Below are positions 17,110 through 63,061 of a stretch of 64,000 bases of DNA, one piece after another. Position 1 is the stretch's first letter. Each line of letters starts with the position of its first letter. The notes under the pieces were generated by a model. It searched no databases. It was not told the DNA's origin and saw only the letters and a program-made list of their open reading frames with translations. This stretch comes from Candidatus Cloacimonadales bacterium (GTDB lineage: Bacteria; Cloacimonadota; Cloacimonadia; Cloacimonadales; JAFGVF01). The stretch is from the NCBI GenBank assembly GCA_963662585.1, contig OY759729.1, positions 1,859,866 through 1,923,865 on the forward strand, written 5' to 3'. A program made the translations under genes and the position numbers.

Positions 17110-18120
17110 ATGAATATTGCAATAATTGGTGGTGGAAGCTGGGGATTAGCCCTCTCTAACCTACTTTTCGATAACGGACATCAAGTTAAGGTGTGGGAAT
17201 ATAATTCTGAATTCGTTAATTTAATCAAGAATACTGGAAAAAATGAGATTTTCTTACCAAACATTCTCATTGAAGCAGAAGTTAGCGACTCCTTAACAGA
17301 GGTAATTACTCCAGCATGTGAAATGGTAATTCTTGCAACTCCATCTTCTTTTCTCAAGCAAATTCTAAAAGAAATTTCCCCTATTTTAGATAAATTAAAC
17401 AATTTGAAATATATTATTAATGTTGCTAAAGGATTTGACCACTCTAATGGTGATATTCTCTCTGAAATGATAAGGAAAGAATTACCCCAAAAATATAGCA
17501 AACTAATCTGTGTACTCTCAGGCCCTAGTCATGCTGAAGAAGTTGCTACTAAAAAGCCAACCACTGTAACGATTGCAGGCGAAGATCTCTTATATCTCAA
17601 AGAGGCTCAAGAAGCTTTCAGTAATGACTATTTTCGCGTTTATAGCACAACAGACATCATAGGTGTAGAACTGGGGGGTGCTCTAAAAAATGTGATAGCC
17701 ATGGCTGCAGGAATTGTTGTAGGCTTAGGTTTTGGAGATAATACTCTAGGTGCTCTCCTTACCAGAGGTAATGTAGAAATTAAGAGACTCTCTGTAGCAT
17801 TAGGTGCTAAACCTGAAACACTAGACGGCTTAGCTGGTATCGGTGATTTAATAACCACAGCTATCTCTCCCCATAGTAGAAACAGATTCGTAGGAGTTGA
17901 ACTGGGTAAAGGCAGAGATTTACAGGATATTTTAGCCGGAATGAAGATGGTGGCTGAAGGTGTCTTAGCAACTAATACTGCTTATATGCTAGCTGAGAAA
18001 CTCAATATCGAAATGCCTATTGTGGAAGCTACTTACAAAATTCTACAAAGTGAAATATCTGCTCGAGATGCAATAAGACAATTGATGCTCAGAGACTTAA
18101 AAAGCGAAAGGTGGATGTAA
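17110..18120 (+). CDS. gpsA: NAD(P)H-dependent glycerol-3-phosphate dehydrogenase
   Basis: NIAIIGGGSWG dinucleotide fold, GALKNVIAMAAG, and a 336-aa length typical of GpsA. Confidence 0.92.
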   Translation: MNIAIIGGGSWGLALSNLLFDNGHQVKVWEYNSEFVNLIKNTGKNEIFLPNILIEAEVSDSLTEVITPACEMVILATPSSFLKQILKEISPILDKLNNLKYIINVAKGFDHSNGDILSEMIRKELPQKYSKLICVLSGPSHAEEVATKKPTTVTIAGEDLLYLKEAQEAFSNDYFRVYSTTDIIGVELGGALKNVIAMAAGIVVGLGFGDNTLGALLTRGNVEIKRLSVALGAKPETLDGLAGIGDLITTAISPHSRNRFVGVELGKGRDLQDILAGMKMVAEGVLATNTAYMLAEKLNIEMPIVEATYKILQSEISARDAIRQLMLRDLKSERWM

Positions 18121-18183
18121 GAGAATTGAGAATTGAGAATTGAGAATTCAGAATTGAGAATTGAGAATGGAGAATTTAGAATT
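18121..18183. repeat. Heptanucleotide tandem array, (GAGAATT)x9 with 3 variant units
   Basis: Read directly: gagaatt x4, cagaatt, gagaatt, gagaatg, gagaatt, tagaatt. It starts on the base after the gpsA TAA stop. Confidence 0.95.
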
Positions 18184-18187
18184 AAAA

Positions 18188-18278
18188 GATGAGGGGCTTC
18201 TTAACTGGGAATGTGGGCTTCCAGCCCGCATCATTGCGAGGCAATGATATATCTTCAAACCCCAAGGGATTAAATAAA
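18188..18278. repeat. ~90-bp three-hairpin module, copy 1 (second copy at 50808-50898)
   Basis: GATGAGGGGCTTCTTAACTGGGAATGTGGGCTTCCAGCCCGCATCATTGCGAGGCAATGATATATCTTCAAACCCCAAGGGATTAAATAAA. Contains GGGCT-tcc-AGCCC, CATTGC-gag-GCAATG and CCC-caa-GGG hairpins. About 94 percent identical to the second copy by eye. Confidence 0.9.
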
Positions 18279-18306
18279 AAAGCAGGTTGAAATACAGCCT
18301 GATGGC

Positions 18307-18860
18307 TTCACGGACTAAAGGTCCGTAACCCCAGTTAATCACTAAAGATGATAGCTTACAGCATGATAATCCCTCTTCTGCCGGATTGTGGACAACCTGA
18401 AGACCGGAGTTCCTCAGCCGTAGGCAAGGGACTTCGGACGAAGAAATTTGTCTGTCGGAAGTAGCTATTCCGTAAAATTGCTTAAAAATCTAGAAATCCC
18501 TGTATCTAATGTAGAAGCAGAAACGCTTCCACTTTATAGAAGAAAACACCCCCTGTATCCCCCTCGCGGAGGGGGATTTAAGATTCACGGACTAAAGGTC
18601 CGTAACCCCAGTTAATCACTAAAGATGATAGCTTACAGCATGATAATCCCTCTTCTGCCGGATTGTGGACAACCTGAAGACCGGAGTTCCTCAGCCGTAG
18701 GCAAGGGACTTCGGACGAAGAAATTTGTCTGTCGGAAGTAGCTATTCCGTAAAATTGCTTAAAAATCTAGAAATCCCTGTATCTAATGTAGAAGCAGAAA
18801 CGCTTCCACTTTATAGAAGAAAACACCCCCTGTATCCCCCTCACAGAGGGGGATTTAAAA
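18307..18860. repeat. 277-bp direct repeat x2
   Basis: TTCACGGACTAAAGGTCCGTAACCCCAGTTAATCACTAAAGATGATAGC... begins at 18307 and again at 18584. The two copies are near-identical until about 18845. Confidence 0.9.
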
Positions 18861-18928
18861 ACACCCCGTCTGCTTCGCAGCCACCCCTCTTTTATCGTGC
18901 CTTCAGCACTAAAGAGGGGAGTTTAAGA

Positions 18929-19075
18929 TTCACGGACTAAAGATCCGTAACCCCAGTTAATCACTAAAGAGGGGGATTTAAGATTCACGGACTAAAGATC
19001 AGTAACCCCAGTTAATCACTAAAGAGGGGGATTTAAGATTCACGGACTAAAGGTCCGTAACCCCAGTTATTAAAT
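18929..19075. repeat. 55-bp tandem repeat, 2.7 copies
   Basis: TTCACGGACTAAAGATCCGTAACCCCAGTTAATCACTAAAGAGGGGGATTTAAGA starts at 18929, 18984 and 19039. Contains the ACGGAC-taaag-GTCCGT hairpin. Confidence 0.9.
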
Positions 19076-27976: not shown

Positions 27977-28294
27977 GAATTTAAAATTTTCACATAAATT
28001 AAGGCGAGGAGTATTTCTTTAATCGTCTAGGGAGGACATTTAATAGGGAGTGTTGGCAAGATACTCCTAGAGAATCCCCCCGAAATTACTTGGCCTCGCT
28101 AGCGGACAGGGGATAAACTGAAGATAAATGTAAAATAATCTGTCAAATTATTTAGGACTGGATACACTCAGAGGATTGGCATCGAAGATAAGGGGAGAGT
28201 TTTCGTTAATCATTCTCCTTCTAGATGAATAGTAAATGCTTATAGCAAAATTTCCTTCAAAGCGTTTGAAATATTAAAAAAACAAGGATTTAGT

Positions 28295-49645: not shown

Positions 49646-50730
49646 GAACTCTCTTTATCCTAATTAGAAAAGAACTGAAGCAAATATTCCGTAATAAAGG
49701 TATGCTCCCCATAATCTTTGCTATGCCTCTTATTCAATTGCTGATTCTAGCCAATGCTGCCAACTACGAAATTAAGAATATTAATGTCTCTATCTTAGAC
49801 TATGGTAAAAATGATTTTATTCCTGAGCTCTCTTCTCACTTAGAATATAATAGCTACTTTACGCTCAAAGGTGTGGATTATGATTATTCTAATGCTATTG
49901 CTCGCTTGGATAAAGGTCAAGTTGATGCTATTATCGTCCTTAACAATAACTTCGTACGACAATTTAATTCTGAAGAAGCCCAAATTCAACTGATTATTAA
50001 TACTATAGATGGTGCTTCGTCAGGTATCATTCTTAGCTATCTGTCTGACTTTATGGGGCAATATCTCTCGCAAAATAATAGTTCTTCTCCCTTGATTAAT
50101 ATGCAATATACCAATAAGTTTAATCTGAAGCTAGACTATAAGACTGTTATGGTGCCTGGTATTCTAGTGATTCTGATTTCAGTGATTAGTGTTTTCTTGA
50201 CTGCTATGAATGTTGTGAGAGAAAAGGAAATTGGAACCATAGATCAACTCAATGTTTCACCTATCACAAAACTTCAATTTATCGGTGGAAAACTCATTCC
50301 TATGGCTGTTATTGCTCTAGGTGAATTAATGTTTGGAATTGCTATAGGAAGATTAATTTATGGTATCCCTTTTATGGGTAATCCTATAACTATCATTATC
50401 TTCGCCCTTGCCTACCTCTGGGTTATGCTGTCATTCGGACTCATCATCTCTACTCGTGCCGAAACTCAACAACAAGCTATGCTAATCGCCTATGTTTTCT
50501 TAGTTATCTTCATTATGTTTTCAGGACTCTTCACCTCGGTCGAAAGTATGCCAACTTGGGCTAATTATATCTCCCAAGCTATTCCTGTCACTCACTTCAT
50601 CACTGTGATGCGTTCTGTGATGCTTAAGGCTACTCCCCTTCATTTATTATATAAAGAATTGATCATTTTACTAGCAAGTGGAGGCCTGCTCTTTACTCTT
50701 GCTACGCTTGGATATAAGAAGACAGAATAG
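49642..50730 (+). CDS. ABC-2 type transporter permease (paralog)
   Basis: Same architecture as the previous gene. ATGA overlap. Confidence 0.85.
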   Translation: MRTLFILIRKELKQIFRNKGMLPIIFAMPLIQLLILANAANYEIKNINVSILDYGKNDFIPELSSHLEYNSYFTLKGVDYDYSNAIARLDKGQVDAIIVLNNNFVRQFNSEEAQIQLIINTIDGASSGIILSYLSDFMGQYLSQNNSSSPLINMQYTNKFNLKLDYKTVMVPGILVILISVISVFLTAMNVVREKEIGTIDQLNVSPITKLQFIGGKLIPMAVIALGELMFGIAIGRLIYGIPFMGNPITIIIFALAYLWVMLSFGLIISTRAETQQQAMLIAYVFLVIFIMFSGLFTSVESMPTWANYISQAIPVTHFITVMRSVMLKATPLHLLYKELIILLASGGLLFTLATLGYKKTE

Positions 50731-50755
50731 AATTGAGAATTGAGAATTGAGAAGT
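50728..50755. repeat. Heptanucleotide array, second locus (TAGAATT GAGAATT GAGAATT GAGAAGT)
   Basis: The first unit contains the TAG stop of the permease gene. Same unit as at 18121-18183. Confidence 0.9.
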
Positions 50756-50807
50756 GATGAATCTATCCACTAATTTCACGAATTACACGAAGAAGATAGA
50801 GAAGACA

Positions 50808-50898
50808 AAGATGAGTGGCTTCTTAACTGGGAATGTGGGCTTCCAGCCCGCATCATTGCGAGGCAATGACATATCTTCAATCCCGAAGGGATTAAATA
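50808..50898. repeat. ~90-bp three-hairpin module, copy 2
   Basis: GATGAGTGGCTTCTTAACTGGGAATGTGGGCTTCCAGCCCGCATCATTGCGAGGCAATGACATATCTTCAATCCCGAAGGGATTAAATAAA. Confidence 0.9.
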
Positions 50899-50915
50899 AA
50901 TAAATACTGTCGGAC

Positions 50916-50964: not shown

Positions 50965-51795
50965 TTAGAAACTAGATTCTACCAACTCCCCATTTTCGTA
51001 GGTTTCTTCATAATTAATGCTTCCGTTTTCATTATAATCGATGAACTTACCATGCAGTTTCCCATTTTTGTAGTAAATTTTACGAGAGATATTACCATTT
51101 ATATAATATGATAAATGCTCACCGACTTTTTTACCCATTACATAATAAGCTTTAGTTTTTAGATTCTTGTTGTGAAAATACTCTAAATACTCACCATCTT
51201 TTTTCCCATTTATATAGTTACACTTGCTATCTATATTCCCATTAGGATGGTACCATAAAACCTCTCCCTCTTCCTTTCCAACTTTATAATAACGCTCAAC
51301 TATTAAGCCCCCATTTTTATCATAACTTTTATACTCACCTTCTCTTTTCCCATCTATATAGTATGCTTTATCCCAGAGGGCTCCATTCTCATGATAACCA
51401 ATAGATTCACCTTCTTCTTTACCTTCTTTATAAGTAGCTTTTATCCATAAATTACCATTCTCATGATACTTGATAAGTTCTCCATCCTCTTTCCCATCTT
51501 TAAAATTAACTTTACTGCGTAAATCTCCATTTTTAAAATATCCTATGAACTCCCCAGTTTGCTTATCGTTAATATAGTTGCCTATATATGCCATAACTCC
51601 ATTTTCATAATACACAATAGACTGACCATTCTTTTTATCATCTTTATACTGGGATACTCGTTTGATTGCTCCGTTTTTATAATATTCCATGACTTGGCCA
51701 TTCTTTGTATCATTTTCATGATTAATAGCATTATTACTACAAGCAACGACTATTAAAAAGAGTAAAAATAGGAATAAGTACTTATTTAATTTCAT
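50965..51795 (-). CDS. MORN-repeat (YwqK-type) lipoprotein
   Basis: Lipobox VVACS, followed by about 10 repeats of the pattern G.....YY.NG....K..Y..GK..GE. Confidence 0.8.
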   Translation of the reverse strand: MKLNKYLFLFLLFLIVVACSNNAINHENDTKNGQVMEYYKNGAIKRVSQYKDDKKNGQSIVYYENGVMAYIGNYINDKQTGEFIGYFKNGDLRSKVNFKDGKEDGELIKYHENGNLWIKATYKEGKEEGESIGYHENGALWDKAYYIDGKREGEYKSYDKNGGLIVERYYKVGKEEGEVLWYHPNGNIDSKCNYINGKKDGEYLEYFHNKNLKTKAYYVMGKKVGEHLSYYINGNISRKIYYKNGKLHGKFIDYNENGSINYEETYENGELVESSF

Positions 51796-56940: not shown

Positions 56941-57020
56941 TTTCCCAATACTTCAGTAAAGCTGATAAGAAGCTTGACACAATAGTTAGTTAATAAAAGG
57001 ATGAAAATCCAAACACCGAT

Positions 57021-57070
57021 AAAGAGACATTTTCAATTAATTTTGATTTTGTCTCTTTTCTTATTTTTGA
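57021..57070 (+). terminator. Possible terminator after the FGE-domain gene pair
   Basis: AAAGAGAC (57021-57028) / GTCTCTTT (57051-57058), followed by TCTTATTTTTG. The 22-nt loop is long, so this is weak. Confidence 0.3.
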
Positions 57071-57355
57071 AATTCTATTGTCACACCACCTGTATCCCCC
57101 TCATAGAAGGAGATTTAAGAGTTATTGTAGCACCCCCTGTGTCCCCCTCATAGGAGGGGGATTTAAGAAAACACCCCGTCTGCTGCGCAGCCACCCCTCT
57201 TTTAGCGTGCCTTCAGCATTAAAGCGGGGAATTTGAAGATGTTGTACCAGATTAAACTTCCATCTACACATCTTTTAGTCTGCCTTGAGCAATCAAGGGG
57301 GAATTGAATAGGTAAAGACTCTTGTTTTCTTCATCATTATAATAGTAATAGCAAT

Positions 57356-57789
57356 CTTAAATCCCGGAGGGATAACATATAATAGGGAGTGTTCGCAAGA
57401 CACTCCTAAGGACACGACTGGAAAATAGCCCTAGAAGGGCGACATACCCTAAATGTATGAAATCAAATTAATAATTTCTTTTATAATTGACCTTATGGTT
57501 TATAAACTTTATTCCTAGATATCAATGAAACAATATTTATTGAACTTGGCTTTATTACAAAACTAAACTATTTTGGTTTATATGAACCGAATAGCAGAGA
57601 ATGAGTATTTAAGAAATAGTGAAACTTAGCAAAAGATTAAGATAAAAAAACACAATGATGATTAGGGATATTATGATGATTCTGGCAGGTCAGAGGATAT
57701 ATCGCCCTTCCAGGGCTATCTTTTTGTCGCGACATCTAGGAGTGTCTTGCGAGCACTCCCTATTATATGGCATCCCTTAGGGATTTAAG
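57356..57789. mobile_element. 434-bp inverted-repeat (MITE-like) element, copy 1
   Basis: The ~94-bp left arm (57356-57449) is the imperfect reverse complement of the right arm (57695-57789). The ~245-bp core is AT-rich and has no conserved ORF. Confidence 0.55.
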
Positions 57790-57998
57790 AGGAATCACCC
57801 CCTGTATCCCCCTCATAGAAGGGGATTTAAGAGTTATTGTAGCACCCCCTGTGTCCCCCTCATAGGAGGGGGATTTAAGAAAACACCCCGTCTGCTGCGC
57901 AGCCACCCCTCTTTTAGCGTGCCTTCAGCACTAAAGTGGGGAATTTGAAGATGTTGTACCAGATTAAACTTCCATCTACACATCTTTTAGTCTGCCTT

Positions 57999-58353
57999 TT
58001 CAGATTTGCTCCAGAGGAGCAGTTTCTTGGTAGCCATGAATTTGTTAAAGAAATCCCATCGCTCCGTAGGTGCGAAGATATACAAATTATCATCATTAAA
58101 GCTTAAAATAAATAGGTTTTTTTATCATAATCTTCATTGCCATAACATAAAAAGCAATTCGCACCTACGGAGCGATTTCTTTGGGGATATGACATTTATG
58201 CTACCAAGAAATAGCTCCACTGGAGCTAGAAATTAGCACTTCAGACTTCAGTACCAAAAATGGCAGTTGAAGAGTGTGATAATCCCTCTTCTGTCGGATT
58301 GAGGACAGCTTGTCCGCTGTGAATTGATTAATAGCAGATGAATAGTCTATTAA
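57999..58353. mobile_element. 355-bp nested insertion flanked by 15-bp direct repeats, containing its own 230-bp inverted-repeat element
   Basis: CTTTTAGTCTGCCTT occurs at 57984-57998 and 58354-58368. Copies 1 and 3 of the macro-repeat are uninterrupted at this site. Internal IR arms lie at 58004-58076 and 58158-58233. Confidence 0.6.
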
Positions 58354-58437
58354 CTTTTAGTCTGCCTTGAGCAATCAAGGGGGAATTGAATAGGTAAAGA
58401 CTCTTGTTTTCTTCATCATTATAATAGTAATAGCAAT

Positions 58438-58872
58438 CTTAAATCCCGGAGGGATAACATATAATAGGGAGTGTTCGCAAGACACTCCTAAGGACACGAC
58501 CGGAAAATAGCCCTAGAAGGGCGACATACCCTAAAAGAATGAAGTCAAATTAATAATTTTTTTTATAATTGACCTTATGGTTTATAAACTTTATTCACTA
58601 GATCAATCAAACAATATTTATTGAACCTGGCTTTATTACAAAAACTAAACTATTTTGGTTTATATGAACCGAATAGCAGAGAATGAGTATTTAAGAAATA
58701 GTGAAACTTAGCAAAAGATTAAGATAAAAAAGCACAATAATGATTAGGGATATTATGATGATTCTGGCAGGTCAAAGGGATATATCGCCCTTCCAGGGCT
58801 ATCTTTTTGTCGCGACATCTAGGAGTGTCTTGCGAGCACTCCCTATTATATGGCATCCCTTAGGGATTTAAG
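58438..58872. mobile_element. 434-bp inverted-repeat (MITE-like) element, copy 2
   Basis: Same arms and core as 57356-57789, differing by a few substitutions and by 1-2-nt indels. Confidence 0.55.
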
Positions 58873-59150
58873 AGGAATCACCCCCTGTATCCCCCTCATA
58901 GAAGGGGATTTAAGGGATTATTGTAGCACCCCCTGTATCCCCCTCATAGAAGGGGATTTAAGAAAACACCCCGTCTGTTTCGCAGCCACCCCTCTTTTAG
59001 CGTGCCTTCAGCACTAAAGCGGGGAATTTGAAGATGTTGTACCAGATTAAACTTCCATCTACACATCTTTTAGTCTGCCTTGAGCAATCAAGGGGGAATT
59101 GAATAGGTAAAGACTCTTGTTTTCTTCATCATTATAATAGTAATAGCAAT

Positions 59151-59586
59151 CTTAAATCCCGGAGGGATAACATATAATAGGGAGTGTTCGCAAGACACTC
59201 CTAAGGACACGACCGGAAAATAGCCCTAGAAGGGCGGCATACCCTAAATGTATGAAATCAAATCAATAATTTCTTTTATAATTGACCTTATGGTTTATAA
59301 ACTTTATTCACTAGATATCAATGAAACAATATTTATTGAACCTGGCTTTATTACAAAACTAAACTATTTTGGTTTATATGAACCGAATAGCAGAGAATGA
59401 GTATTTAAGAAATAGTGAAACTTAGCAAAAGATTAAGATAAAAAAACACAATGATGATTAGGGATATTATGATGATTCTGGCAGGTCAAAGGGATATATC
59501 GCCCTTCCAGGGCTATCTTTTTGTCGCGACATCTAGGAGTGTCTTGCGAGCACTCCCTATTATATGGCATCCCTTAGGGATTTAAG
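59151..59586. mobile_element. 434-bp inverted-repeat (MITE-like) element, copy 3
   Basis: Same arms and core as 57356-57789. Confidence 0.55.
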
Positions 59587-59772
59587 AGGAATCACCCCCC
59601 TGTATCCCCCTCATAGAAGGGGATTTAAGGGATTATTGTAGCACCCCCTGTGTCCCCCTCATAGAAGGGGATTTAAGGGATTATTGTAGCACCCCCTGTA
59701 TCCCCCTCATAGAAGGGGATTAAGAAAAAAGGCAAGCTTTGCAGATTGCCTTCATGTTTATCTATATGTATA

Positions 59773-59813
59773 CTATTAGTCTTCAATACCTCTATTAGTC
59801 TTCAATACCTCTA
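59773..59813. repeat. 19-bp tandem duplication spanning the thiC stop codon
   Basis: CTATTAGTCTTCAATACCT occurs at 59773-59791 and 59792-59810, followed by CTA. The second copy encodes the last residues and stop of thiC on the minus strand. Confidence 0.9.
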
Positions 59814-61072
59814 TCAGTTCTGACAGCACAGAGTTTTCCACACATAGTGCAATAATCATCATCTTTTGATTCAGAGTTACTTTTTCTTGATTTAGCTAAT
59901 TCTGGGTCTAGGGAGTTAGCATAAATTGTTTCCCAATCAAATTCTCTACGAGCTTTAGATACTCTATGATCTTGTTCGATAGCCCCAGGAACTTTCTTCA
60001 CAATATCCCCAGCATGGGCAGCAATTTTAGTGGCGATAATACCTTGTTTAACATCTTCAGGAGTTGGTAAGCAGAGGTGTTCCGCAGGAGTAACATAGCA
60101 GAGGAAATCTACTCCGGCAGCAGCAGCAAGTGCTCCACCGATAGCTCCAGTGATATGGTCATAACCAGACGCGATATCTGTAACTAGTGGACCTAAGACA
60201 TAGAAAGGTGCTTCTTTACAGATAGATTTCATAATCTTAACATTCATTTCTACTTGATCTAAAGGAATATGGCCTGGTCCTTCAACCATGACTTGAACTC
60301 CTCTTTTTCTAGCTCTTTCTACTAATTCGCCTAATACTAAAAGCTCAGCAAATTGCCCTCTATCAGAAGCATCAAATTGGGAGCCAGGTCTCATTCCATC
60401 ACCGAGTGATAGTGTTACATCATATTTAGCACAAATCTCTAAAAGACGGTCGTAATGTTCATAGAGAGGATTTTCGCATTTATGATTCTTCATCCATTGT
60501 TTGATAAGTGAACCACCACGAGAAACTATGCCTAATAATCTTTCAGAAGTTTCATAAGTAGCAACACTTTGTCTGGTGATTCCACAATGAACGGTTACGA
60601 AATCCACACCTAGCTTAGCATGATTTTCTATCTCTTCAAAAAGGAGGTCAGGAGTCATATCATAGAAAGCTTTCTCTTCAGCTAATAGTCTGCTCATTAC
60701 GCTATAGATGGGCACAGTACCCACCATAATAGGAGAAGAATCAACTACTTGCTTGAGGATGGCAGCTAAATCTCCACCTGTTGATAAATCCATAATGCTA
60801 TCTGCACCATATTTTACTGAAACATTAAGTTTTTCTAATTCTTCTTCAATAACGCAATGTTTTTCTGAAGTACCGATGTTGGAATTAACCTTAGTTTTTA
60901 GTCCGTAGCCTATACCAACTGCGCTGAAGTTATGATTAATATTTTTAGGAATTACTATTCTTCCTTTGGCAACTTCTTCTCTAATGTATTCTCCATTTCT
61001 ATTTTCTTTTTGGGCTACAATCTCCATTTCTGGAGTGATAATGCCTTTTAAAGCTGATTCTAATTGTGTCAT
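59795..61072 (-). CDS. thiC: Phosphomethylpyrimidine synthase ThiC (short form)
   Basis: 425 aa with the C-terminal Fe-S motif CTMCGKLCAV and ThiC-like strings (GTVPIY, DFVTVHCG, GPGHIP). Confidence 0.93.
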   Translation of the reverse strand: MTQLESALKGIITPEMEIVAQKENRNGEYIREEVAKGRIVIPKNINHNFSAVGIGYGLKTKVNSNIGTSEKHCVIEEELEKLNVSVKYGADSIMDLSTGGDLAAILKQVVDSSPIMVGTVPIYSVMSRLLAEEKAFYDMTPDLLFEEIENHAKLGVDFVTVHCGITRQSVATYETSERLLGIVSRGGSLIKQWMKNHKCENPLYEHYDRLLEICAKYDVTLSLGDGMRPGSQFDASDRGQFAELLVLGELVERARKRGVQVMVEGPGHIPLDQVEMNVKIMKSICKEAPFYVLGPLVTDIASGYDHITGAIGGALAAAAGVDFLCYVTPAEHLCLPTPEDVKQGIIATKIAAHAGDIVKKVPGAIEQDHRVSKARREFDWETIYANSLDPELAKSRKSNSESKDDDYCTMCGKLCAVRTDRGIED

Positions 61073-62469: not shown

Positions 62470-62549
62470 TCCTCCAATTAATTTTGTTTTGTTTTGGAGG
62501 ATAATGCCTTGTAGAAGGTCAAAAAAATGTAAGGTGTGTATAAAAAATC

Positions 62550-62626
62550 GCATCTCACTTCCTTCGCCGGCATTACCCGGATCAGGTTCTAAGGGTATAA
62601 TCTCAGCCTTTCGGCACCCCTGAATC
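62550..62626 (-). promoter_or_regulatory. TPP (THI-box) riboswitch aptamer
   Basis: The minus strand reads CAGGGGTGCCGAAAGGCTGAGATTATACCCTTAGAACCTGATCCGGGTAATGCCGGCGAAGGAAGTGAGATG. It contains the GGGGTGC, CTGAGA, ACCCTT, AACCTGATC..GG.TAAT.CC.GCG.AGGAA consensus blocks. Confidence 0.92.
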
Positions 62627-62676
62627 TGCATGATCTTAGCCAATAAAAAATACTAACTAAAAGTGTCAAGATTAAA

Positions 62677-62835
62677 CCCGAATGGTGCAGTAGATCTTTT
62701 AGAATAGCACTATATTCATTTGCTAAAGCATTTTACATAATTTCTCAGAGTATATATATTATACGCTGATAAATTCTGTAAAACCTTTATCTAAAAGAAT
62801 CTGCCTCTTCTGTAAAGCTCTACTGCACCATTCGG
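62677..62835. repeat. Inverted repeat with 16-17-bp arms upstream of the thi leader
   Basis: CCCGAATGGTGCAGTAG (62677-62693) versus CTACTGCACCATTCGG (62820-62835), with 16 bp perfectly complementary. The intervening 126 bp are AT-rich. Confidence 0.75.
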
Positions 62836-63061
62836 ATTAAAGCGAATATGACGAAAAAGACTGAGCGACAAAGAGGCAAAGTAAATACTCTGCACAAGAA
62901 TTAACACGAATTAAATCAAATTTCCACGAATGTAGGAGCGAAAGCTTGTAGATCGATTATTTACCACTAGAAGAAAAAAAAAAAAATAAAACTTGCCTAG
63001 ATAGACTTTTAAATTAAATTGACTTTGTATTTCAAAGTACAATGTTTGATAAGGAGTCAAG

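Follow-up and report, generated by a model that had tools for sequence, protein, structure and literature searches.

In Escherichia coli, bacterial interspersed mosaic elements (BIMEs) are intergenic mosaics of a few hairpin modules in alternating orientation, separated by recurring linkers; they are located 3' of genes, vary in copy number between strains and bind gyrase, integration host factor or DNA polymerase I. The Correia or NEMIS elements of Neisseria are 100-155 bp long, have 26-bp repeats, duplicate TA and are found in hundreds of dispersed copies, and their repeats, when co-transcribed with genes, form RNA hairpins that are cut by RNase III. In Pseudomonas, inverted doublets of REPs (repetitive extragenic palindromic sequences) form hairpins together with the spacer between them and are known as REPINs (Bertels & Rainey 2011, PMC3116915). 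The commonest higher-order arrangement in P. fluorescens is the tandem REPIN cluster "including the flanking sequences", REP singlets are more decayed than doublets, and REPs serve as insertion targets (PMC3116915). REPs lie mainly between convergent or unidirectional open reading frames (ORFs), downstream of genes, where they are thought to act as RNA elements, and their hallmark is a GTAG or CGTC tag beside the stem (PMC3733652). Here, we describe a 434-bp inverted-repeat element that occurs three times between the gene of an 889-aa FGE-sulfatase-domain protein and thiC in a 64,000-nt stretch of DNA from a Candidatus Cloacimonadales bacterium (contig OY759729.1; hereafter the window, with position 1 as its first letter). 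Our analyses indicate that this unit probably forms an inverted doublet, in which two copies of a dispersed extragenic repeat (~100 nt, three hairpins) enclose a locus-specific AT-rich spacer.

The three copies, recognized in the sequence and by the repeat finder, lie at 57356-57789, 58438-58872 and 59151-59586, are 434-436 bp long and share 96.6-98.4% identity in pairwise comparison; copies 2 and 3, both on the + strand, were also recovered as inverted doublets by alignment and by the covariance model described below. In copy 1, the left arm (57356..57449, +; covariance model 105 bits) is a module of three hairpins, H1 (ATCCC/GGGAT), H2 (GGAGTGT/ACACTCC) and H3 (GCCCT/AGGGC), and the right arm (57695..57789, -; 96 bits) is the same module inverted. 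The arms, of ~94 nt, are complementary over 54 nt at 91% and a further 36 nt at 81%, that is, at 79 of 95 aligned positions overall. Between them, the spacer or core (57450..57694; 245 bp) is non-palindromic, has no copy elsewhere and no conserved ORF, and has a GC content of 0.25, against 0.48 in the arms and 0.34 in the whole window. Three copies with long inverted arms around an AT-rich core lacking a conserved ORF had been reported in a preliminary description of this DNA, and all of this holds. Small ORFs of 40-50 aa do occur in the core but vary in frame and length and are truncated or frame-shifted from copy to copy, on which ground a small protein was rejected, and no gene is called on the arms in any of the loci that we fetched. 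Folding of the element, also proposed in the preliminary description, gave predicted energies far below those of shuffled sequences on both strands (-167.6 kcal/mol, z -14.6 for the + strand; -171.4 kcal/mol, z -15.5 for the - strand). An origin of the whole element as a decayed ancient palindrome was rejected because complementarity between the core's halves does not exceed that of shuffled sequences.

The arm is also found on its own. Its core reads TCTTAAATCCC-nnn-GGGAT..ATATAAT..GGGAGTGTTCGCAAGACACTCC, with GCCCT-nnn-AGGGC further on, giving hairpins H1, H2 and H3, and this arm-core pattern has seven matches in the window, where none is expected by chance; one of the seven (28042-28069) is downstream of dxr. 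A profile and a covariance model were built from the arms and run over 335 kb of Cloacimonadales DNA; L-numbers denote the stretches fetched from relatives. Across this material, paired arms were found at the thiC locus only, and solo arms elsewhere. The solo arm of the window lies between dxr and comEC (28013..28116, +; 63.7 bits, E 1.7e-10), in sense orientation to both genes, and has an orthologue at L095 11168-11272 that is 9.5% diverged. The scan gave further solo arms at L001 140-246, at L082 7521-7628 (equivalent to L002 16395-16502), at L082 21300-21401 and at L084 1-101, together with a degenerate arm at L084 6859-6938. Arms are thus present at six or more (at least six) distinct intergenic sites, which qualifies them as a dispersed extragenic palindromic module. 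The single-arm fragment that had been noticed downstream of dxr is therefore real and in fact a full module, but it is one of several solo arms rather than a lone fragment, and the existence of several solo arms identifies the ~100-nt arm as the dispersed unit. All of the clear solo arms (5/5) are intergenic and lie in sense orientation between co-directional genes, and the arms of the doublet are each sense to the nearer incoming gene. The exact arm-core pattern was matched in none of the genome contigs, in none of the viral contigs and once in metagenomes (L001), the lack of genome matches being due in part to compensatory changes in the relatives that break the pattern; a looser version gave eight matches in viral contigs, all attributable to chance.

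The arms form a family with conserved local hairpins. Given the arm structure, 94% of the cells are paired, and double-sided changes are seen in three pairs, in H2 from G-C to C-G and to A-U, in H3 from C-G to U-A. The covariation score and the percentage paired were reached by 0 of 500 shuffles, and RNAalifold independently finds H1 and H2. Compensatory changes, for which the preliminary description had suggested looking, thus occur in the local hairpins H2 and H3, but the copies vary too little to judge the long helix between the arms, with three variable arm columns among four copies, one of which gives a G-U pair. In the alignment, covariation support for the local hairpins is real but thin, because it comes from seven distinct sequences and hence few independent events.

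The 434-bp element is itself part of a larger repeat. Alignment of the three stretches shows a block of ~713 bp in tandem, in the order two 47/48-nt hairpin modules, a ~70-nt module B, a ~120-nt linker and the 434-bp element. Because the tandem alignment includes the flanks, the three copies are one locus amplified in tandem, not three separate insertions; the preliminary description had treated the 434-bp copies as the units, and three transpositions are not supported. The two convergent genes end in intrinsic terminators, and the array takes up the space between these borders, whose sequences are both conserved in L002, L081, L082 and L084. The terminator of the 889-aa FGE-domain protein gene (57018..57068, +) is a hairpin AAGAGACA.../...TGTCTCTT followed by a U-run (-15 kcal/mol, z -4.6), and that of thiC (59719..59753, -) reads AAGGCAA.../...TTGCCTT followed by UUUUUU. 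Unit 1 opens with two REP-like 47/48-nt modules of the structure CACCCCCTGTATCCCCCTC-loop-GAAGGGGATTTAAG (57084..57171, +), a repeat family in the repeat finder, and continues with module B, whose 3' end is GGGGAATTTGAAG, and a locus-specific linker carrying the hairpin CCTTGA-GCAA-TCAAGG (57166..57355, +). Pairs of REP-like 48-nt modules, from the repeat finder and the alignment, mark the boundaries between units 1 and 2 (57796..57883, +) and between units 2 and 3 (58879..58966, +), and a run of 2.6-3 tandem copies (59594..59729, +) closes the array. Module B of unit 2 (57884..57997, +; from the alignment) is followed by an extra block of 370 bp (57998..58367, +) that is absent from units 1 and 3, has a 15-bp direct repeat (CTTTTAGTCTGCCTT) on both sides and holds its own ~220-bp hairpin (58006-58228). 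The block is shared with the single unit of L081, at 99.2% identity to L081 12968-13338; since that single unit carries it, units 1 and 3 may have lost the block by deletion between the 15-bp repeats. As a separate observation, the ~220-bp hairpin gives weak matches to plant MITE-derived miRNA families (MITE, miniature inverted-repeat transposable element; miRNA, microRNA), and a solo half of it is present at L002 16818-16888 and L082 7301-7371. A blastn search with the 713-bp unit against phage and plasmid collections returned no match.

Parts of the mosaic recur outside the array. Besides 57084-59729, the 36-nt REP-like module occupies 18547-18583 and 18824-18858, and both L002 and L005 carry it as well; module B recurs at 18858-18929, in a stretch (18824-18929) sharing 90-92% identity with the thiC array. 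Hairpin H1, taken together with its CTTAA tip, corresponds to a shortened, inverted 36-nt module (ATCCCCCTC.../...GAGGGGGATTTAAG), so the arm and the remaining mosaic share one set of building blocks. In some of the 48-nt modules, GTAG sits 10 nt upstream of the stem (TTATTGTAGCACCCCC); others have GTCA or GTCG. The doublet sits in a BIME-like mosaic of short hairpin modules between the terminators of convergent genes, and it resembles BIMEs in the intergenic mosaic of hairpin modules, their alternating orientation, the recurring linkers, the position after genes and the strain-variable copy number, although the modules here are unrelated in sequence to those of BIMEs and several-fold larger.

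Comparison with relatives bears on how the array arose. Judged by ThiC, the window belongs to Candidatus Cloacimonadales and its closest public genome is OY829950.1 (L002; 96% identity); the 90% cluster of the 889-aa protein has four further members. L002 and L082 have no unit at the thiC site; L081 has one and the window three. In L002 and L082, whose flanks are 93-96% identical to those of the window (93-98% for all compared flanks), the gap contains a single 36-nt REP-like module, the only module of the mosaic found at the relatives' empty site and the counterpart of the last module of the window's array, followed directly by the thiC terminator. The L081 genome is 98.3-99.1% identical to the window overall and carries exactly one unit, in the version with the 370-bp block, its copy of the element being 97.7% identical to the window. 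In the more distant L084 and L083 (78% protein identity), a REP-like module in truncated form is found in the gap together with a degenerate arm and repeats of an unrelated kind. The polymorphic block is hence the entire mosaic with the 36-48-nt modules at its two ends, and not the 434-bp element alone: variation between empty and occupied sites, which the preliminary description had regarded as telling, does exist among relatives (0, 1 or 3 units), but no clean pair of empty and filled sites was found for the element itself, as the strains differ by the whole mosaic. The block was gained in the lineage of the window and L081; closer and more distant relatives hold one 36-nt module only. The simplest path from one unit to three would run through the direct REP-like modules on either side, between which unequal homologous recombination or replication slippage would have taken place, and in its tandem, near-identical doublets that include their flanks the array resembles a REPIN cluster. 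What appeared to be three miniature-transposon insertions or an RNA array is thus one gain of a mosaic, followed by local tandem amplification.

Solo arms and doublets also differ in how they change. Variable columns number 3 of 193 in the arms of the four doublet copies, as opposed to 17 of 247 in their core (Fisher p 0.01). Between the window and the L081 genome, to which L095 also belongs, we count 1 difference in 189 positions of the doublet arms, 12 in 247 of the doublet core and 10 in 105 of the dxr-comEC solo arm, against a background of 0.9-1.7% differences overall; for solo versus doublet arms of this genome pair, with one solo locus, the Fisher p value is 2e-4. Singlets are therefore more decayed than doublets, as they are among REPs. 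The dxr-comEC arm is ~10x more diverged between the window and L095 than its flanks, and its H2 is damaged in L095. The same site carries an arm in the window, L095 and L096, but the arm in L096 (11180-11320) is of a different subtype (GGGATTAAATAGGATAGCCnGGGGTAAA), shared with L084 6859-6938, and this replacement suggests that arms undergo ectopic conversion or re-insert repeatedly at fixed sites. Doublet arms stay intact; solo arms are quickly degraded or overwritten and would be decaying remnants.

Taken together, the locus has the look of fairly ordinary REP/MITE-like repeat DNA, selfish or neutral, in an uncultured Cloacimonadales bacterium, and not of a new gene. Judged by its anatomy, it fits the REP/REPIN picture better than any other reading: two inverted extragenic palindromic modules flank a spacer, and a hairpin is predicted to result. 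We assign it to the broad kind of extragenic palindromic or miniature repeats and not to the RAYT-REPIN family, which is defined by the RAYT gene. To our knowledge, no RAYT gene is known for the Cloacimonadota lineage, and no Y1_Tnp gene is present among the called genes of the fetched loci. The arm family would spread or persist in the manner of REP/REPIN or MITE DNA, with an enzyme whose gene lies elsewhere recognizing the hairpins, either in single-stranded DNA or in the role of terminal repeats, and spread may proceed via a structure-recognizing transposase or via ectopic conversion; read-through transcription of a doublet would give an RNA duplex of ~95 bp, a likely substrate of RNase III. 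Several points weigh against the doublet interpretation. The full doublet is known from a single locus, so that its own mobility is putative. With arms of ~100 nt, each of three hairpins, and a spacer of 245 nt, it is far above the size of classical REPs (20-40 nt) and REPINs (~100 nt), the 434-nt unit being ~4x a typical REPIN of ~70-110 nt. The GTAG tag is absent from the arms and does not adjoin the stems, and no adjoining CGTC tag is present either. The divergence of the doublet arms (0.5%) is not clearly under the genome background given above. Finally, the compensatory changes and the better folding of the sense strand described below could equally fit a function at the RNA level. A bolder version of the doublet interpretation, in which the arm would represent an undescribed class of large REP-like element in Cloacimonadota, its shape held by selection and moved by a structure-specific enzyme (a "giant REPIN") or acting as an RNA element of 3' untranslated regions (UTRs), appears decidedly unlikely; the case for selection on shape is made by the compensatory changes and the sense-strand bias. 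Were it true, through a dedicated mobilizing enzyme or an RNA role, the REP/REPIN concept would come to include a new phylum and modules of far greater size.

The alternative closest to the preliminary description, which had proposed a non-autonomous, MITE-like element, is that the 434-bp element is a deletion derivative of an insertion sequence (IS) with a DDE transposase, the arms being its ~94-bp terminal inverted repeats and its partner acting in trans from another place in the genome, and that it duplicated TTAA on insertion and was later amplified with its flanks. Long terminal repeats, small size and lack of an ORF agree with such an origin, as does a site that is filled in some strains and empty in others; the termini (cTTAA-ATCCC...GGGAT-TTAAg) allow a TTAA duplication, and they are like the tips (TTAAA-CCC...) of a genuine MITE that resides in these genomes and duplicates TTAAA. 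However, it is the larger mosaic that varies between strains, and the only candidate for a target-site duplication, for which the preliminary description had advised looking, is this TTAA, which is palindromic and belongs to the inverted repeat, so that it is inseparable from an extension of the latter; moreover, TCTTAA is kept upstream of H1 in solo arms and is therefore probably part of the module rather than a target. No transposase is found among the genes of the window, as had been stated, and the 335 kb of related DNA contains neither a full-length copy at a second site nor a transposase flanked by arms. The one IS seen, an IS1182-like element of L095 (173-1699), was rejected as autonomous partner because its ends (CAGACTGTGTG) are unrelated to the arms, and the solo arms share one orientation relative to genes, unlike random relics of terminal repeats. 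Of the MITE-like proposal, the non-coding nature and the long inverted arms stand, as do the lack of a transposase in the window and the site that is empty or occupied in different relatives, but neither three transpositions nor an unambiguous target-site duplication is supported, and we consider a classical MITE unlikely. Correia/NEMIS elements, which are also small, non-coding, bounded by terminal inverted repeats and present or absent between strains, differ likewise, in that the repeats here are of ~94 bp, without an unambiguous duplication, and the full copies are in tandem at one locus.

Two further explanations place the function in RNA. According to the first, the arm would be a cis-acting RNA, a three-hairpin 3'-UTR or intergenic module that stabilizes, processes or insulates transcripts, and the doublet a by-product of facing convergent genes. 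The changes in H2 and H3, the recovery of H1 and H2 by RNAalifold and the orientation of both solo and doublet arms relative to genes all speak for this, as does the proposed role of REPs as RNA elements downstream of ORFs (PMC3733652). In addition, the sense strand folds better than the antisense strand in four of the five clear solo arms, and the paired positions of the arms contain 16 G-U against 3 A-C pairs on the sense strand, but 10 of the 16 G-U pairs come from one column and the covariation from the few independent events noted above. The neighboring genes (comEC and those for the FGE-sulfatase, a HAD hydrolase and a secreted protein) have no common function, the doublet lies beyond the terminators of both genes, and the fast change of the dxr-comEC arm together with its damaged H2 in L095 points to drift and not to constraint, making a cis-acting RNA very unlikely. 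According to the second explanation, already raised in the preliminary description, each unit would be a stand-alone structured non-coding RNA of ~430 nt with a ~90-bp closing helix, encoded by a tandem gene array. The extreme predicted stability of the fold stands; the tandem layout recalls arrays of small RNAs, and an A-to-G change in copy 3 (59237) keeps a G-U pair on the + strand. Nevertheless, both strands fold equally well, as is the case for an inverted repeat in DNA, Rfam 15 gave nothing at gathering score and chance-level matches only at E up to 10, and no sigma-70-like promoter is found in or before the unit. The ATATAAT box varies at A-11 in other arms (ATTTAAT, ATCTAAT, AGTCGAT), a position that is important for sigma-70 promoters; the core is the most variable part, and the element lies between two convergent terminators. 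It is also absent from strains with ~95% identical flanks and is thus dispensable, and we regard such an RNA as highly improbable. A promoter in the arm was likewise rejected, given a poor -35 and an A-11 that is not kept, and a CRISPR, a type III toxI-like array, an integron attC site, a retron and a diversity-generating retroelement were rejected on the basis of missing spacers, missing associated genes and wrong geometry.

A separate, genuine MITE of ~175 bp, with terminal inverted repeats of ~19 nt (CCCGAATGGTGCAGTAGA...), is located at 62668-62843, between the thi operon with its riboswitch and the next gene. The thiamine pyrophosphate (TPP) riboswitch itself (62542-62631, -; Rfam RF00059, 65.9 bits) is upstream of the thi4-thiE-thiC operon, as expected of its regulator. 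Other copies of the 175-bp MITE are present at L002 16491-16664, at L003 5-99 and 1738-1908 and at L005 11431-11601. The element is demonstrably mobile and duplicates TTAAA, because L082 7519-7531 reads CCTCTTAAATCCC uninterrupted, whereas the orthologous site of L002 is filled, with TTAAA on both sides. The insertion in L002 is exactly at the tip of a solo arm, which is intact in L082, so that the repeats described here, like REPs, are also hit by other mobile DNA.

These data document a modular extragenic hairpin-repeat family in an uncultured phylum for which we found no published repeat catalogue; our search of the literature returned nothing on repeats or MITEs of Cloacimonadota or Cloacimonas, nor did we find Cloacimonadota among the phyla surveyed for REPs. 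The repeats turn over fast between strains that are 98-99% identical and mark hot spots of recombination and insertion, and they will fragment short-read assemblies and mislead annotation.

Similar mosaics occur elsewhere in the window. Downstream of a gene ending at 18120, the region 18121-19069 is a second repeat mosaic, comprising (GAGAATT)x9, a 277-bp unit in two copies and a 55-bp unit in three, as well as the same 36-nt REP-like module as in the array and the initial 70 nt of module B, which together make up the stretch at 18824-18929 mentioned above. In the L081 genome, the transposase gene of the IS1182-like element is inserted in the counterpart of this mosaic. An 81%-identical copy of the module at 18119-18281 is found at 50726-50903, with heptamer repeats and a hairpin ending in ATCCCGAAGGGATTAAAT. 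The adjoining MORN-repeat gene (50965-51795, -) is present in L081 and absent from L082 and L002, in both of which its place is taken by a solo arm and further modules. A group II intron, with a reverse transcriptase/maturase ORF and a domain V-like hairpin, lies at L082 21590-22565, ~190 nt upstream of a solo arm and with no evident link to it. Next to the array, a 19-bp tandem duplication (CTATTAGTCTTCAATACCT, 2.4 copies; 59773-59818) extends over the 3' end and stop codon of thiC, where L081 has a single copy.

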